DNA of 64,000 bases from a virus (lineage: Duplodnaviria > Caudoviricetes): positions 4,880 to 68,879 of IMG/VR virus record IMGVR_UViG_3300033066_001173. One strand, 5' to 3'. The notes under the pieces were generated by a model. The model was not told the origin of the DNA. It saw only the letters and a list, made by a program, of their open reading frames with translations, and ran no database searches. This document shows positions 8,245 to 60,131 of this stretch, in pieces. The translations under genes were made by a program, and so were the position numbers. The first letter of the stretch is position 1. Each line of letters starts with the position of its first letter.

Positions 8245-8336
8245 ATTTGGTAACTATATACTTATTCCACCAAAAAAATGTGGTGTGGTAATGGTTACTT
8301 GCTTGTGGCAGTACGGATAAATTAACTAAATATAAT

Positions 8337-8573: not shown

Positions 8574-8728
8574 ACAAACTGTTTTATAACTACGGGATTG
8601 TCGCAACAATACTAAAGCATGAATATTTCATTATCAAAGGGGAATGGGGTTCGGTTGTTGAATTCCTTTTTAGAGCAAAGGAAGTGTATGGTTGTAAATT
8701 TTAATTATATTTGTAAAAAAAAATTAAC

Positions 8729-9095: not shown

Positions 9096-9797
9096 ATGTC
9101 TCATCTTATAGTAGAGGATTTATCTAGAGTAAGGACAAGTATAGGACAGGTTTTAATAAAGCCGGGACCAGAAAATGATCATGTAGTTATTGGAGAAGAA
9201 AATCATCAGCTTAAAGTTTGGCTAGACAGTTCATACGACCCATTAAAATTCTCTGTAACATTTGGAGAAGTAGTTTGTGTTCCTCCAAGGATAGACGACG
9301 TTCTTGAAACTACAATAGAAATAGAAAAAGGAGACACTGTTTTTTTTCATTATCTATCATGCGCAAATGCCATTCGTGATAAAAAATACATCATTCACAA
9401 TAATCAATTTTACTACATAGTAAATTACTCTGCCTTATTTTGTGCAAAAAGAAACGATCAGGTTATAACTCTTAATGGTCATATTCTGGTAGAACCAATA
9501 GATGATAGTTTAAATGATAAAACGGATTGGGGATTTATTATTCCTGAGAATATAAGAAAGAAGAATCACTGTAATTTAGGCAGGGTAGTATATGCAGGAA
9601 ATCCACTTTTGGGACAAAAAAAAACATGCAATGAAGGGGATTTAGTTTTCTTTAGGACATTCTCAAATACCCCGCTTCAATACGAATTATTCTCTAACTT
9701 CAAAGAGAAAAACACGTACTATAGAATGAAGTATGAAAATATTTATGGAATAAAAAATGAACATCAAGATAGAGGACTTCAGTCAATTACAGTATAA
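9096..9797 (+). CDS. Tandem GroES-like co-chaperonin domain protein
   Basis: Two GroES-like repeats: VLIKP...GEVVCVP...IEKGDTVFF and HILVEP...KTDWGFIIP...GRVVYAG...NEGDLVFF. Confidence 0.7.
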   Translation: MSHLIVEDLSRVRTSIGQVLIKPGPENDHVVIGEENHQLKVWLDSSYDPLKFSVTFGEVVCVPPRIDDVLETTIEIEKGDTVFFHYLSCANAIRDKKYIIHNNQFYYIVNYSALFCAKRNDQVITLNGHILVEPIDDSLNDKTDWGFIIPENIRKKNHCNLGRVVYAGNPLLGQKKTCNEGDLVFFRTFSNTPLQYELFSNFKEKNTYYRMKYENIYGIKNEHQDRGLQSITV

Positions 9798-50304: not shown

Positions 50305-50652
50305 ATGGCAACACTTTTATGGCTTGATGACGCAAGAAATCCACACGAAAACGACTGGCTTGTTTTTAGTCCAATAGAACAACCATTTGAAACTATTTGG
50401 GTAAAGTCTTATCAAGAGTTTAAAGAATATATTTATGATAATGGATTGCCAACAGCTATTTGCTTTGACCATGATTTAGGAGAGCCGATAGGTGAAGATG
50501 AAAAAACAGGGATGGATTGTGCTAAATGGTTAGTTTGGTGGTGTCAAGAACATAATCTCAAATTACCATTGTATAATATACAGTCAGCTAATCCAGTTGG
50601 AAAAGACAATATAGACAGTCTGTTGAAAAATTTCATTAAACATTGCAACTAA
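50305..50652 (+). CDS. Cyclic-phosphate-processing receiver-like domain protein
   Basis: LWLDDARNP, WVKSYQEF, ICFDHDLG, TGMDCAKWLV, QSANPVGKDNI. Confidence 0.8.
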   Translation: MATLLWLDDARNPHENDWLVFSPIEQPFETIWVKSYQEFKEYIYDNGLPTAICFDHDLGEPIGEDEKTGMDCAKWLVWWCQEHNLKLPLYNIQSANPVGKDNIDSLLKNFIKHCN

Positions 50653-53111: not shown

Positions 53112-53368
53112 AAACAGTTAAAAATAGGATTATCATCCTGCCAGACGAGGTGTCTAATAAAACAGACTCTGGATTTATTCTTCCAGACGAGGCAAAGCAG
53201 CCCCCTATGTATGGATCTGTAGTTGACGCAGGTCCAGACTGCAAGTATGTAAAGAACGGAGATAAGATAATATTCCCGAAGGGCTACGGATCAAAATTAG
53301 ATATAAACAAAGTGGAGCACATTATAATGTCCGAAGAGGATGCGTTCTGCGTAATTGAATACAAATGA
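53084..53368 (+). CDS. groES: Co-chaperonin GroES
   Basis: NRIIILP, KTDSGFILPDEAK, GSVVDAGP, VKNGDKIIF..YG. Confidence 0.9.
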   Translation: MVEQEMHVVKTVKNRIIILPDEVSNKTDSGFILPDEAKQPPMYGSVVDAGPDCKYVKNGDKIIFPKGYGSKLDINKVEHIIMSEEDAFCVIEYK

Positions 53369-54930
53369 AAACAGCGAAGAAAATTTACTTTGACAGCGAG
53401 TCAATACTCAAACTAAAAGAGGGTGTTGATATTTTAGCGAATGCAGTATCAAGCACCCTTGGTCCGAAAGGAAGGGTTGCAATACTTCAAAATCCTTATG
53501 GATCTCCAATTCTAACAAAGGATGGGGTAACGGTTTCCCGGCATATTAATTTATCTGACCCTATGCAAGATATGGGGGCTTCTTTAATTAAAGACGTAGC
53601 CGAAAAGACTGTTTCTCAATGCGGGGATGGTACGACTACTTCATGCATACTCGCACAGGATATTCTTGAAAGAGGGGTTAAGGCAATTCAGGAAGGAAAG
53701 AATCCAATAGAACTTAGAAAAGAAATGGACGAGGCTGTTGAGGTGGCTATTAAGTACATAAAAGAAAACGCAATACCGGTTGGAGAGGATTGGGATAAAG
53801 TTAAAAACATTGCTATTATTTCTACTAACAACGATATCCAATTGGGAACCCTAATTTCTGATACACTAAAGAAGGTTGGAAAGCATGGTGCCTTAACTGT
53901 AAGTACAGGAACTGGCCTAGAAACTACAGTAGATTATGTGGAAGGCATGCATTTTGACAAAGGATTTATTTCTCCTTACTTTATTACTAACCCGGACAAA
54001 AATACAGCTGAATTAGATAATCCTTACATACTTATTTTCGATAAAGACATTGAGGATTTAGCGGAGCTATTGCCAATAATAGAGCAGTGCTATAAGCAAA
54101 AAAAGCAGTTACTGATCATTGCAAATGATGTTATTGGGTCAGCATTATCTGGGTTGGTAGTTAACAAGGTTCAGCAAGGATTCCCTGTGTGCGCTGTATA
54201 CGCCCCAAGCAGACTCAATGAAAGAAAAGAGATATTTCAGGACATAGCCACAGTAACCGGGGCTTCAATTGTATCTGAGGAGTTTGGAAAGAAGCTTAAG
54301 CAGGTTGTAATATCTGATTTAGGGCAATGCGAAAAGGTAATTGTTACGCACAACAATACTTTGATAATCGGAGGAAAAGGAAGTAGGGCTAAAATATCTG
54401 ATAGAGAGCTACAGTTGGAGGCTCAAATTAATCTGACAGAGCAGGAGGAATTAAAAGAAGGTTTAAGGGTTAGATTAGCTAAAATGGCATCTGGGGTAGC
54501 TATAATTAAAGTTGGAGGCAAAACGGATGCAGAGGCAAAAGAAAGGAAGGACAGGGTGGACGATGCAGTTGGCGCAACCAAGTCTGCTATTAAGGAGGGT
54601 ATTTTAGCTGGCGGCGGAAAGTCTTATATAAACGCAGCAACCGAGGTGTACAAAATTAAAACAGAGGGGGCAGACTTAATTTCAAAGTCTTTATTTTCTC
54701 CAGCAAAAAAACTACAGCTAAACTGTGGGATACTAATTGACGATGTTAAATATGAAAGCGACCCAAGTATTGGATTCAACGCTTTGACAGGAAAAAATGA
54801 AGACCTTATAGCTTCAGGAGTAATAGATTCTGCTATGGTTTTAAGATGTTGTCTTGAAAATGCAGCCAGTATAGTTGGATTAATGCTGACCAGTAATGCT
54901 TCTATAATCTACGAAAATCTACCTGAATAA
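53365..54930 (+). CDS. groEL: Chaperonin GroEL
   Basis: TLGPKGR, TKDGVTV, GDGTTT, EGMHFDKGFISPYF, RLAKMASGVAIIKVGG; lacks the C-terminal GGM tail. Confidence 0.97.
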   Translation: MKTAKKIYFDSESILKLKEGVDILANAVSSTLGPKGRVAILQNPYGSPILTKDGVTVSRHINLSDPMQDMGASLIKDVAEKTVSQCGDGTTTSCILAQDILERGVKAIQEGKNPIELRKEMDEAVEVAIKYIKENAIPVGEDWDKVKNIAIISTNNDIQLGTLISDTLKKVGKHGALTVSTGTGLETTVDYVEGMHFDKGFISPYFITNPDKNTAELDNPYILIFDKDIEDLAELLPIIEQCYKQKKQLLIIANDVIGSALSGLVVNKVQQGFPVCAVYAPSRLNERKEIFQDIATVTGASIVSEEFGKKLKQVVISDLGQCEKVIVTHNNTLIIGGKGSRAKISDRELQLEAQINLTEQEELKEGLRVRLAKMASGVAIIKVGGKTDAEAKERKDRVDDAVGATKSAIKEGILAGGGKSYINAATEVYKIKTEGADLISKSLFSPAKKLQLNCGILIDDVKYESDPSIGFNALTGKNEDLIASGVIDSAMVLRCCLENAASIVGLMLTSNASIIYENLPE

Positions 54931-56891: not shown

Positions 56892-57113
56892 TTAGTTGAG
56901 TTTGTAATTAGGGAGGTCTGCTTTAATCCTTCTGCTCCTTTTGGGAAATTTCATCATTCTTTCTTGGGACAGAAGCTGTTCTAAAATGTACAAACAAATA
57001 TCGAATCCAACAACGCCATCTTTTGGAATACCGGTTACTTTGGATACTTTATTGATGTGCGCAACAACTATTTCCGGAGGAATTCTGTCTACTATCCTAG
57101 AAATGGGTTTCAT
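56892..57113 (-). CDS. Hypothetical early protein
   Basis: 73 aa with an A/C-rich leader and an upstream promoter-like box. Confidence 0.55.
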   Translation of the reverse strand: MKPISRIVDRIPPEIVVAHINKVSKVTGIPKDGVVGFDICLYILEQLLSQERMMKFPKRSRRIKADLPNYKLN

Positions 57114-57215
57114 AAATTAGGGGTTTTGTGTTTTTAGTTTCGGTATATCCAAGTTACTTATCAAATATAGGATATAAAAAATAAGGTTTTTATGATGTGG
57201 AAGTTAAATGTTAAC

Positions 57216-57286
57216 AAATAGAGTGCGGGGCGAAATAACCACTGGTCTGTAGAAACCGAAAATCCTCCCCGCCTTTTTCTCTATTT
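57216..57286 (-). ncRNA. Candidate structured intergenic RNA
   Basis: Stems AAATAGAG/CTCTATTT, GCGGGG/CCCCGC and an inner GGTTT/AGACC that pairs only on the minus strand. Confidence 0.45.
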
Positions 57287-57321
57287 CAATAATCAACGAG
57301 CCAAGTTACTTAAAGTTTTGT

Positions 57322-57504
57322 TCATTTTTTTATGTAAGCTGAATTATATTTTAGAGCGCTTTCGCTTATTATTGTTAGTCTGCCCTTTTGAAATTGAGCC
57401 TCTGCTTTTAATTGGGATTTCTTAAACTGCATTAATCCAGCCGGACCTCTTAATATTTCTTGAGACTTTCCATTATACCAATAGATTAAAATATATGTTT
57501 TCAT
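57322..57504 (-). CDS. Hypothetical early protein
   Basis: 60 aa with an A-rich leader. Confidence 0.6.
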   Translation of the reverse strand: MKTYILIYWYNGKSQEILRGPAGLMQFKKSQLKAEAQFQKGRLTIISESALKYNSAYIKK

Positions 57505-57509
57505 GGTAT

Positions 57510-57662
57510 TTATTTTTGGTTTATATGTATTTTAGCTAGCTCCAATATCAACGGCAAAAGTATTTCAGTTGGCTGTTGGTTTATGTTAACGCATTTTGCC
57601 ACAGCTGTTGCGGCGTCTACTATTGAGTTCCATTTTTTTAATGATTCTTCTCGCTGATTCAT
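57510..57662 (-). CDS. Small early protein (50 aa, not in the ORF track)
   Basis: MNQREESLKKWNSIVDAATAVAKCVNINQQPTEILLPLILELAKIHINQK; fills the gap exactly. Confidence 0.55.
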   Translation of the reverse strand: MNQREESLKKWNSIVDAATAVAKCVNINQQPTEILLPLILELAKIHINQK

Positions 57663-57673
57663 ATAGTTTGGTT

Positions 57674-57877
57674 TTAAAGCGTTGAAATATTGCTGTTAGC
57701 CCAGGATAATATATCATTTAAGTGAGTAGCATCCTTAAAACAGGTGCCTATTAATGGTAATTTATTCGACCCCTTAAATATATGAGCGAACAGCCCGTAA
57801 TTATCATTTGTTATCCTTTGACTTATTTTAACTCTGTAAGTTACGTCTCTGTGTTTTATTATTCTTACGGTTTTCAT
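57674..57877 (-). CDS. Hypothetical early protein downstream of hammerhead 2
   Basis: 67 aa. Confidence 0.6.
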   Translation of the reverse strand: MKTVRIIKHRDVTYRVKISQRITNDNYGLFAHIFKGSNKLPLIGTCFKDATHLNDILSWANSNISTL

Positions 57878-57892
57878 GGTGCGTTGGGATTT

Positions 57893-57944
57893 GGTTTATA
57901 CTCCCCTAAGGGAGTTTCACGGATTAACCGATCTTCAGTAAACC
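57893..57944 (-). ncRNA. Type I hammerhead ribozyme, copy 2
   Basis: GGUUUA-CUGAAGA-U CGG uuaau CCG U-GAAA-C UCCC uuag GGGA G-UA/-UAAACC. Core and all three stems present; predicted cut between 57899 and 57898; U-U at the base of stem II is atypical. Confidence 0.8.
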
Positions 57945-57952
57945 TTTTAAAA

Positions 57953-58309
57953 TTAATACTGTATTTTTTCTATTTTACCCCCAAACATTCTGGCTTTTTT
58001 AATTGCCTCTCCCCTGGTATATTCGAACACTTCATTGTATGGCTCTCCAAGCCTCCCTAAATAGCCACCGAATATTTGATTTTTTTTAGCCGTATGCCCT
58101 TTTAATAAACGTACACGGTACATATCTTTTGGTTTAAATTCTGTTATTCCTGCGGCTTCTAATAATTCAATATCATTTGCATCAATAAATTTAGATAACG
58201 ATTGAAGTTCAATTAATTCGCCGTAGCTTATGCATTGGCCTCTTAGTTCTTTTCTAAGATATTCTAGCCTGTTTTGTATTTTTCTAGTATTAATTTTTGT
58301 TGTTTTCAT
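57953..58309 (-). CDS. Hypothetical early protein flanked by two hammerheads
   Basis: 118 aa; RLEYLRKEL...ISYGELIELQSL...DIELLEAAG. Confidence 0.75.
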   Translation of the reverse strand: MKTTKINTRKIQNRLEYLRKELRGQCISYGELIELQSLSKFIDANDIELLEAAGITEFKPKDMYRVRLLKGHTAKKNQIFGGYLGRLGEPYNEVFEYTRGEAIKKARMFGGKIEKIQY

Positions 58310-58324
58310 GTTATTAGGTTTTTT

Positions 58325-58381
58325 GGGTTTGACGGGGGAGCTATTCCCCCGTTTCGGCTATTTAAGCCTCTTCAGAAACCC
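58325..58381 (-). ncRNA. Type I hammerhead ribozyme, copy 1
   Basis: GGGUUU-CUGAAGA-GGCU uaaau AGCC-GAAA-C GGGGGA auagc UCCCCC G-UC/-AAACCC. Canonical core with a GUC site; predicted cut between 58331 and 58330. Confidence 0.92.
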
Positions 58382-58383
58382 TT

Positions 58384-59253
58384 TTACCATTTTAGTTGTA
58401 TTGCTAGAGCCTTTATTTCGCTAATCTTAATAACGTGGCACCCTATTGTTATTTTTTCAGTATCCAGGCTCTTTACTTCATAATCCATTATCTTGTATTT
58501 GCACTCTCCTTCGCACCCTCCCAGTACAAGTGTATTAAGAATCCAAGTAAAAGCCCTTTTTGCTATTTCGGTCGGTATTTCTACGCCTTGACTAGTTTCT
58601 ACTCTTTTGCCATTGTGCCTTAAATAATCAACATTCTCGTTTCGGCTGTATAGCCTTTCTCCTTTGCCGGCTCTCCATTTATCTAGGCTTTCAAAGTGCA
58701 TTTTTAATGCTTCCTTTTCTCTTTTTATCCTTTCTTTGTTAATTCGTGCACTTTCTTTCTTTAAATATTCAGAGTATTTTCCACTCTCTGCTTTTTTAAT
58801 TATGTTTTTAATGTTCGCAGGAACCTTGATACCAAAAAATTTGCAGTACTTGATACATTCATTGAAAAAGTAGTTTGCCGGATTAATATATTTCTCAGGC
58901 TTTTTAGCCGTTGCCAGTCCGCTTAATTCTCCTTTTATTGCATCAAAGTATTTCTCCAGGTTAATTATGTGTCCTTCGCCTGGGCAATAGCACAGTATTT
59001 TATTGAGGTGATTTATAGACCTGTCGACTATTCCTATTTGTTTTGCTGTGGTATTGCCATATTTACGGAAAGTAAAAAGAACAGCATTGTCACCTCTTTT
59101 ATTAGTAACATGTTTTGCTATTGGGAAATGCGCCCCGTAGCTGAAGATGGTATTACCTGTGAAATAAAAGTTTCCGCCGGCGTTTCTTCCCTCTTGTTGA
59201 ATTTGATTAGCCCACATGTGAGCTACATCATCCTTTTTAAATACTAGTTTCAT
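58384..59253 (-). CDS. Conserved-looking phage early protein
   Basis: 289 aa; IFSYGAHFPIA...YGNTTAKQ motif; function unknown. Confidence 0.7.
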   Translation of the reverse strand: MKLVFKKDDVAHMWANQIQQEGRNAGGNFYFTGNTIFSYGAHFPIAKHVTNKRGDNAVLFTFRKYGNTTAKQIGIVDRSINHLNKILCYCPGEGHIINLEKYFDAIKGELSGLATAKKPEKYINPANYFFNECIKYCKFFGIKVPANIKNIIKKAESGKYSEYLKKESARINKERIKREKEALKMHFESLDKWRAGKGERLYSRNENVDYLRHNGKRVETSQGVEIPTEIAKRAFTWILNTLVLGGCEGECKYKIMDYEVKSLDTEKITIGCHVIKISEIKALAIQLKW

Positions 59254-59279
59254 GGTTTTGGGTTTTAAGGGTTAATATT

Positions 59280-59322
59280 ATTTTGTATTGGGTACTTCCT
59301 TTCGGTTTCCCCTCCACAAAAC
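59280..59322 (-). ncRNA. Intergenic hairpin with loop-E (bulged-G) motif and GAAA tetraloop
   Basis: UUUUGU..GGG-GAAA-CC-GAAA-GG-AAGUA-CCC..ACAAAA. Confidence 0.6.
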
Positions 59323-59326
59323 GTCT

Positions 59327-59719
59327 TTATACTGTTTCTTTGTTGTTTATCAATTCAATTAAGCTATTTATATCTAATTCCTCGTTTACGTACTCATCCA
59401 ACGCTGCATAAGCTAACTGGCTAATATTATTGATCTCTCCAAAATTATCAAAACAGGTAAAATCAGTAGAATTCAATTCCATTGCTATCTGAAAACAAGT
59501 ATAATAATAAATACATGCGTTATCTATGTCGCTATTTATATACTCTCTTATTCCGTCTTCATCCTCAATATTGCCGTTCTTAATCTCATTGATAATATCT
59601 AACTCCAAAGAGTTGATAAAATCATATTTATTAAATTCTGCTTTTTTGTTATTTCTAACTTCCTGTAATTGGCTTTCTAATCTCTCGATTTGTTGCGCCA
59701 TTTCTTTTTTAGTTTTCAT
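59327..59719 (-). CDS. Ocr-like acidic protein (putative DNA mimic, anti-restriction)
   Basis: IKNGNIEDEDGIREYINSDIDNACIYY aligns by eye with T7 gp0.3 [25 protein letters not shown]/E-rich; near the start of the early operon. Confidence 0.55.
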   Translation of the reverse strand: MKTKKEMAQQIERLESQLQEVRNNKKAEFNKYDFINSLELDIINEIKNGNIEDEDGIREYINSDIDNACIYYYTCFQIAMELNSTDFTCFDNFGEINNISQLAYAALDEYVNEELDINSLIELINNKETV

Positions 59720-59745
59720 TTTGCTAGTTTTTTTAAGTTATTAGG

Positions 59746-59886
59746 TTAGTTTAATCCTATTAAATTAGTTAGTGTTTCAGTACTACCGAACAGATGCCCG
59801 GTTAATACGTGGATGACTCCTTTAAATTCGAGTTCGTAGGTTCCTAGAACCTCGCTGAACTCTTTTGGGTTTAGATTGTTTAACAT
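59746..59886 (-). CDS. Small ORF at the head of the early operon (may be non-coding)
   Basis: 46 aa from ATG 59886; overlaps a hairpin and a duplicated leader. Confidence 0.35.
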   Translation of the reverse strand: MLNNLNPKEFSEVLGTYELEFKGVIHVLTGHLFGSTETLTNLIGLN

Positions 59887-59908
59887 GTTTTTTGGGTTTA
59901 GATTGTTT
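59863..59908. repeat. 19-nt direct repeat
   Basis: TTTTGGGTTTAGATTGTTT at 59863-59881 and 59890-59908. Confidence 0.9.
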
Positions 59909-59916
59909 CTACGCCT

Positions 59917-59947
59917 CAAAGATATGTCAACACTTGCAATAATGCAA
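59917..59947 (-). promoter_or_regulatory. Early promoter overlapped by a TTGCA-N4-TGCAA palindrome
   Basis: Minus strand TTGCATTATTGCAA-N9-TATCTTTG, the same geometry as 7723-7753. Confidence 0.75.
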
Positions 59948-60131
59948 GTATGTGAATGCATTGATATTACTGATGTTTGACAAAAGCAGATAAAACTCCG
60001 TGCTATCTAAATGTGTTGATTTTATTGATATCTCAGTGTGTATTGCAAATATGCAAGTGAAGTACAAATAAATCTTTTGCAAAAAATGCAAATAACCGCT
60101 GTATGTGCAGTAATATCAACGAAAAATAATT

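Follow-up and report, generated by a model that had tools for sequence, protein, structure and literature searches.

Two type I hammerheads of a phage subfamily flank a single gene in an early phage operon and probably process its RNA into linear single-gene mRNAs

Hammerhead ribozymes that flank single genes are found in clusters in prophages, and for three such arrays in vitro cleavage was demonstrated at all sites (PMC3088659). It was proposed by Perreault et al. 2011 that these ribozymes cut long phage RNAs down to mRNAs the length of an operon or a gene, and the idea of a circular product of clustered phage hammerheads, which is not new, had already been raised in the same study (PMC3088659). 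A 2019 review still gives the purpose of such hammerheads as undefined (PMC6765202). Circles have been observed for retrozymes and viroid-like RNAs, whose units are flanked by repeats of one hammerhead, are non-coding or RNA-replicating, and adopt rod-like or branched folds that join their ends (PMC7229834, PMC7761336). Hammerheads that punctuate a phage operon are an arrangement known since 2011, and the window described here (the whole 64-kb stretch of phage DNA analysed) is one more example.

The window holds two hammerheads, HH1 and HH2, on its minus strand (Table 1). The most plausible reading, and one which we consider probable, is that both are active type I hammerheads of a phage subfamily and that they process an early polycistronic RNA into linear single-gene mRNAs. 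The initial annotation of this DNA had placed two hammerheads of the same orientation around one 118-aa ORF, and this was borne out both by reading the minus strand and by a descriptor scan. It had also predicted a double-cleavage product of 432 nt, and the cut positions give exactly that length (58330 to 57899). The predicted ends of this RNA, a 5′-OH and a 2′,3′-cyclic phosphate, follow from established hammerhead chemistry.

Table 1. Coordinates of the two hammerheads, their predicted products and the surrounding genes in the window.
Feature	Coordinates	Strand	Basis or remark
HH1, type I hammerhead	58324..58382	minus	sequence, predicted fold, family model R1
HH2, type I hammerhead, variant with U.U at 10.1/11.1 and A17	57892..57945	minus	sequence, R1
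Predicted double-cleavage RNA, 432 nt	57899..58330	minus	leader, ORF and HH2 body as 3′-terminal structure
Leader left by HH1 cut, 21 nt, A/C-rich, 5′-OH predicted	58310..58330	minus	
Leader left by HH2 cut, 21 nt, for the 67-aa gene	57878..57898	minus	
118-aa ORF, only gene between HH1 and HH2	57953..58309	minus	ORF list
Leftward early operon, about eight small genes, holding HH1 and HH2	56892..59961	minus	
Upstream early gene, 289 aa, N-terminus matching phrog_7247	58384..59253	minus	ORF list, PHROG
Downstream gene, 67 aa	57674-57877	minus	ORF list

Read 5′ to 3′, HH1 opens with A58382 and the first strand of stem I (GGGUUU, 58381-58376), followed by CUGAAGA, stem II (GGCU-UAAAU-AGCC) and GAAA; its 3′ part consists of stem III, GUC up to C58331, the second strand of stem I (AAACCC, 58330-58325) and A58324. 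HH2 is composed of A57945, GGUUUA (57944-57939), CUGAAGA, a stem II region of U-CGG-UUAAU-CCG-U and GAAA, and then of stem III, GUA up to A57899, UAAACC (57898-57893) and A57892. Stems I, II and III measure 6, 4 and 7 bp in HH1 and 6, 3 and 5 bp in HH2; in both motifs stem I is open while stems II and III are capped by loops. The core positions inspected (C3 U4 G5 A6 N7 G8 A9, G12 A13 A14, A15.1-U16.1 and H17) are canonical in HH1 and HH2 alike, at 13/13, with position 17 being C in the former and A in the latter. Cleavage is predicted after C58331 and after A57899, respectively. The released RNA would comprise, from its 5′ end, the 21-nt leader, the 118-aa ORF, an 8-nt spacer and the HH2 body. 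No terminator-like site was found on the minus strand between HH1 and HH2.

Comparison with other phages provides the principal support for both motifs. A covariance model, R1, was built from 39 other phage sequences with the window copies left out, and it scored HH1 at 59.7 bits (E 1e-13) and HH2 at 54.7 bits (E 2.4e-12), inside the family range of 41-79 bits. These were exactly the two R1 matches in the 64-kb window, and HH1 and HH2 were also the only matches when the whole 68.9-kb genome was scanned with the descriptor. The minimum-energy folds of both reproduce all three helices, that of HH1 being the three-stem hammerhead at -26.2 kcal/mol (z -3.6). Rfam at its gathering threshold had no match in the window. 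HH1 aligned end to end with the RAGATH-1-hammerhead (RF03152) at 30 bits, under the cut-off of 56.3, and E-value Rfam searches of the operon revealed no other ribozyme class.

The subfamily to which the two motifs belong is large. The exact 25-nt core and stem II of HH1 were found in six other IMG/VR contigs, in which stems I and III are wholly different from those of HH1 with complementarity retained. With a looser pattern, in which core and stem II were fixed, at least 118 IMG/VR viral stretches were matched, and although the pattern specified neither stem I nor stem III, both are base-paired in almost every stretch. The same looser pattern had 6 matches in 185,579 prokaryotic genomes (one per species), all of them on metagenome-assembled genome (MAG) contigs, and judged by this distribution the subfamily is almost exclusive to phages. 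A descriptor scan of the subfamily loci yielded 185 complete hammerheads, which represent 135 unique sequences. A stem I of exactly 6 bp was seen in 182 of the 185, and among the unique members an A adjoins it 5′ in 135/135 and 3′ in 134/135. Stem II has 4 bp and a 5-nt loop, with an invariant U at loop position 1 and an invariant A at position 3. HH1 and HH2 share the features that define the subfamily, namely the 6-bp stem I, the flanking A's, loop II and a cut some 20-30 nt ahead of the next ATG.

Rfam largely misses these ribozymes: version 15 gave 2 sub-threshold matches among about 28 copies in 8 loci, and nearly all members of the subfamily escape it. The subfamily stem II was not found among the supplementary sequences of Perreault et al. 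2011 that were searched.

Changes on both sides were seen in 14 of 16 pairs in a gapless alignment of 39 members. The covariation score in these members was 0.72 compared to 0.15 for shuffles and at most 0.09 for slid partners, and all three helices covary; since the rows of the alignment were picked by a scanner that demands pairing, the percentage of paired positions is circular, while the variety of pair types is not. Strict conservation of the catalytic nucleotides combined with covarying stems indicates that selection acts on the RNA.

The position of the hammerheads relative to the genes is equally regular. Between two and six same-strand hammerheads occur on each of 45 locus-strands, mostly 170-1100 nt apart, so that each interval accommodates a single small gene. 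Measured to the next ATG that opens an ORF of 30 aa or more, the cut-to-ATG distance has a narrow distribution, with a median of 25 nt and most values within 18-32 nt; HH1 and HH2 both cut 21 nt ahead of theirs. The stop codon of the upstream gene usually abuts or overlaps stem I in the subfamily, and in the window HH1 starts 2 nt past the stop codon of the 289-aa gene (58386-58384) and HH2 starts 8 nt past that of the 118-aa ORF (57955-57953). Such geometry relative to stop and start codons would be expected if the elements set the ends of mRNAs from neighbouring cistrons. The rigidity of the whole arrangement, in which stem I has 6 bp with an A on either side and the cut falls about 25 nt ahead of the ATG, argues for a role in forming the 5′ leader of an mRNA.

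The genes of the operon also have a leader motif in common, AAACCNAA, which closely precedes seven start codons, both in gaps that contain a hammerhead and in gaps that do not. Ten of the 27 matches to AAACCNAA in the window lie on the minus strand within 57515-59899 (2.4 kb), where about 0.35 would be expected on one strand, as scaled from a shuffle mean of 18.6 matches on both strands of 64 kb. Seven of these ten operon matches are situated just before start codons. The leader left by the HH1 cut holds AAACCNAA twice and forms no pairs when the product is folded in silico. The 3′ strands of stem I of both HH1 and HH2 are instances of AAACCNAA, and the likeness of GGGUUU and GGUUUA is explained thereby. 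The near-complementarity of the two stems I was considered as evidence for circularisation and rejected, as AAACCNAA also precedes genes without a hammerhead. A hairpin at 59280-59322 (minus strand), in the gap of the 130-aa and 289-aa genes, is unexceptional (-12.8 kcal/mol, z -1.35), and an Rfam search with E values up to 5 gave no match for it.

Based on these observations one may propose the following course of events. HH1 and HH2 occupy two neighbouring intercistronic gaps of the early operon, and during transcription each would fold and then cut itself, such that the polycistronic RNA would be resolved into linear single-gene mRNAs. Each piece would start with a 5′-OH on a short, unstructured, A-rich leader of 21 nt and would have stems II and III of the following hammerhead as its 3′ structure, with the 2′,3′-cyclic phosphate one base past the helix; the mRNA of the 289-aa gene would accordingly have the HH1 fold at its 3′ end. 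The likely benefits would be that the leader of each small gene is insulated from upstream sequence and that each message acquires a stability of its own. The comparison shows that the motifs are present, that they belong to the family, that its stems covary and that the geometry towards stop and start codons is fixed; cleavage in vivo and its effect on stability and translation are inferred.

Processing has two observations against it, namely the U.U next to the core of HH2 and the scores of both copies, which are under the Rfam gathering scores. One may speculate that one or both motifs do not cleave, being decayed or structural, and are merely intercistronic hairpins, with HH2 as the likelier case. 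At the core-adjacent pairs 10.1-11.1, 1.1-2.1 and 15.1-16.1, HH1 is Watson-Crick in all three whereas HH2 has U.U at 10.1/11.1, a kind of mismatch for which candidates were rejected by the strict filter of Perreault et al. 2011 (PMC3088659), and HH2 may therefore be slow. The hammerhead fold of HH2 is moreover marginally favoured (-16.2 kcal/mol, z -2.2 to -1.1), its centroid lacks stems I and II, and HH2 has no Rfam match, E-value searches included. However, every core nucleotide of HH2 is intact, the invariants of the family (flanking A's and the U and A of loop II) are kept, and the leader that it would leave, 21 nt, equals that of HH1. The U.U at 10.1/11.1 is also seen in four more distinct members of the family, each of which has A17, and these differ in inner stem II (CGG, CGC, AGC), stem I and stem III, with the inner stem II covarying among the U.U members. 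Recurrence in four other members with covarying stems suggests that the U.U of HH2 is a tolerated natural variant, kept by selection and not a product of decay. The U.U members are located at 57892-57945 (minus strand) of the window, L013:8592-8659, L026:1770-1823, near 4855 in L119 and near 6580 in L122; A17 is present in 5/5 distinct U.U members compared to 11/121 members with G-C (Fisher p 1.8e-5), and the combination may represent a coupled core variant or a single lineage. Loss of cleavage is in our opinion very unlikely, and by comparative evidence at the sequence level HH1 and HH2 are confirmed as genuine hammerheads, Rfam being of little help. A role at the level of DNA, which can coexist with RNA processing, seems unlikely as well but deserves more weight: the hammerheads could also, or mainly, be module boundaries at which recombination swaps, deletes and inserts single-gene cassettes among related phages. 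Two cassettes of locus L013 (8240-9290) are missing in the related L079 (780-960) with breakpoints inside hammerheads, and the single L079 hammerhead is a mosaic of three L013 copies, with the upstream flank of that at 8334, the body of that at 8652 and the downstream flank of that at 9202. Likewise, L004:660-1260 (-) and L078:4120-4720 (+) carry orthologous cassettes of about 390 nt with 91% identity, each between two identical hammerheads, while one phage differs from the other in stem III, in loop II and in the base at the cleavage site, which amounts to concerted evolution. Of 51 unique pairs of adjacent hammerheads in arrays, 29 have stems I whose strands could be exchanged with full pairing, compared to 14% of random different-locus pairs (14/35 versus 5.5% when the consensus GGUUAA is left out), and the cargo modules occur in other phage contexts without hammerheads. 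The sharing of stem I within arrays could reflect selection for circle-competent cassettes, but DNA-level explanations are at hand; also, as its 3′ strand makes up the first six bases of the leader, stem I may be tuned per phage. None of the array stem I sharing, the mosaics or the concerted evolution applies to the HH1/HH2 pair. Aside from the 7-nt CUGAAGA and short runs HH1 and HH2 have no sequence in common, stems I, II and III all being different, and they would thus be poor substrates for homologous recombination. The phage of the window had no match by blastn among 50,697 phage records, and the strict catalytic conservation and covarying stems point to selection at the RNA level.

The initial annotation went further than excision and suggested that the RNA could be circularised: a host ligase of the RtcB type would close the 432-nt RNA into an exonuclease-resistant, translatable circle with a junction that cannot be cleaved again. 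The excision half of that proposal is well supported by family comparison and covariation, while the circle is disfavoured by a stem I that pairs at four of six positions, by ends that lie apart and by the lack of a ligase in the phage; we regard circularisation as very unlikely. It is established that a 5′-OH and a 2′,3′-cyclic phosphate are the end chemistry that RtcB needs, and retrozyme RNAs that have been cut at both ends by type I hammerheads are closed by RtcB in vitro (PMC7229834). RtcB is present in many bacteria, a Bacteroides control genome among them, and a shifted 5-bp pairing of AAACC with GGUUU can be read from the sequence. The junction had been described as GUA-AAACCC with A opposite A at pair 1.1/2.1, which is correct; pair 1.4/2.4 is mismatched as well, with U facing C. 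We also agree that the junction disfavours re-cleavage, since it does not fold as a hammerhead, and a circle, once closed, should be stable against it. The same property, however, means that no helix holds the ends for ligation. The chimeric stem I, formed by the HH1 strand and the HH2 strand, is with its 4/6 pairs typical of random family pairs, and its likeness is accounted for by the operon-wide AAACCNAA. When the 432-nt product is folded as a linear RNA (z -2.0), the ends are apart, the 5′ 20 nt are unpaired and no end pairing is predicted; the circular fold does not join the ends either and is weaker than the linear one (-76.8 compared to -83.9 kcal/mol). HH1 and HH2 are not repeats of each other, in contrast to the hammerheads of retrozymes and viroid-like RNAs. 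A profile search found no RtcB, RNA_ligase or 2_5_RNA_ligase2 and no Rnl-type or other RNA ligase gene in the phage, the absence of a match to RNA_lig_T4_1 being uninformative as its control matched nowhere either. Clustered phage hammerheads have been examined for circular or spliced products and none were detected (PMC3088659). Four DNA contig runs showed neither joints nor ends, as is usual for contigs. An endless reading frame would not arise from a circle, as the ORF is closed by a stop codon. If true, the circle would be the first natural ribozyme-made protein-coding circular mRNA in a bacterial virus, and circles, if ever shown, would matter much more than linear messages; circularisation is unsupported at this locus, where nothing positive points to it.

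The protein encoded between the two hammerheads offers little guidance as to function. No match to Pfam or PHROG was obtained for the 118-aa protein and no function came from the ESM Atlas; 24 homologues were found, none of them named. It consists of two modules, each found separately in other phage proteins. The C-terminal part of about 60 residues occurs at 58-60% identity in other phage proteins, alone or differently fused, and the N-terminal part of about 50 residues resembles viral proteins of about 52 aa and the C-terminus of another protein. The relatives of the modules are not flanked by hammerheads, and the loci L001 and L002, which contain the C-terminal module, hold none at all. The nearest protein relative, P0001 (107 aa, from a 42-kb contig; 94% identity), is near-identical over about 90 residues, after which the C-terminal tails diverge, and it represents a variant that arose by frameshift or by recombination in a phage closely related to this one.

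The virus record is a single contig of 68.9 kb, 96% complete and with 36.5% G+C, and includes genes for terminase, portal, a DnaB-like helicase, RecT and YqaJ. A chaperonin of the Cpn60/GroEL family is encoded at 53365-54930 (plus strand; Pfam PF00118, E 2e-57). It is curious that a 115-aa protein at 50305-50652 (plus strand) matches Pfam cREC_REC (PF20274, 76.7 bits), the 'Cyclic-phosphate processing Receiver domain', in a genome that also has ribozymes expected to make 2′,3′-cyclic phosphates. A tblastn search with this protein against the 122 hammerhead loci gave nothing, which says little given their short flanks. The portal protein had no relatives in the 185,579 genomes, and hence no prophage relatives were found there. 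Among the 69 ORFs of 100 aa or more in the whole genome, only 3 are preceded by a Shine-Dalgarno-like motif, and the leaders are A-rich; this hints that the host, as in Bacteroidota, does not depend on Shine-Dalgarno motifs; the Bacteroidota-type promoter pattern was no commoner than chance.

Linear single-gene mRNAs remain the favoured outcome of the two predicted cuts. The gain from the comparative work is the definition of a large, nearly phage-only subfamily of type I hammerheads that is largely missed by Rfam, and this subfamily constitutes a clean system for asking why phages process their messages with ribozymes.

Among the systems described, the clusters of Perreault et al. 2011 are the most similar. 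Several same-strand hammerheads are situated there in intercistronic gaps of phage transcription units, the flanked gene content is variable and unnamed, and a role in RNA processing was proposed (PMC3088659); here, two same-strand hammerheads flank one gene in one phage transcription unit. The published clusters differ in that they are mostly found in prophages in bacterial genomes and are often type II (PMC3088659), whereas the present subfamily is type I and nearly viral-only, with a fixed 6-bp stem I and invariant A's. HH1 and HH2 have the same catalytic core and type I topology as Hammerhead_1 (RF00163) and the RAGATH-1-hammerhead, but the upstream hairpin of RAGATH-1 is absent and the scores are below gathering. 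The resemblance to retrozymes and viroid-like RNAs is that two same-strand hammerheads release a unit that can be closed by tRNA ligase or RtcB (PMC7229834, PMC7761336). In contrast to retrozymes, the two hammerheads here are unlike each other, the insert is an ordinary phage ORF and no end-joining fold is predicted, and a closed circle would not re-form a complete ribozyme. Synthetic insulators of the RiboJ type employ a hammerhead placed just upstream of a leader, which removes upstream context and leaves a defined leader with a 5′-OH. Compared to these, the arrangement in the phage operon is a natural one and is repeated between genes.
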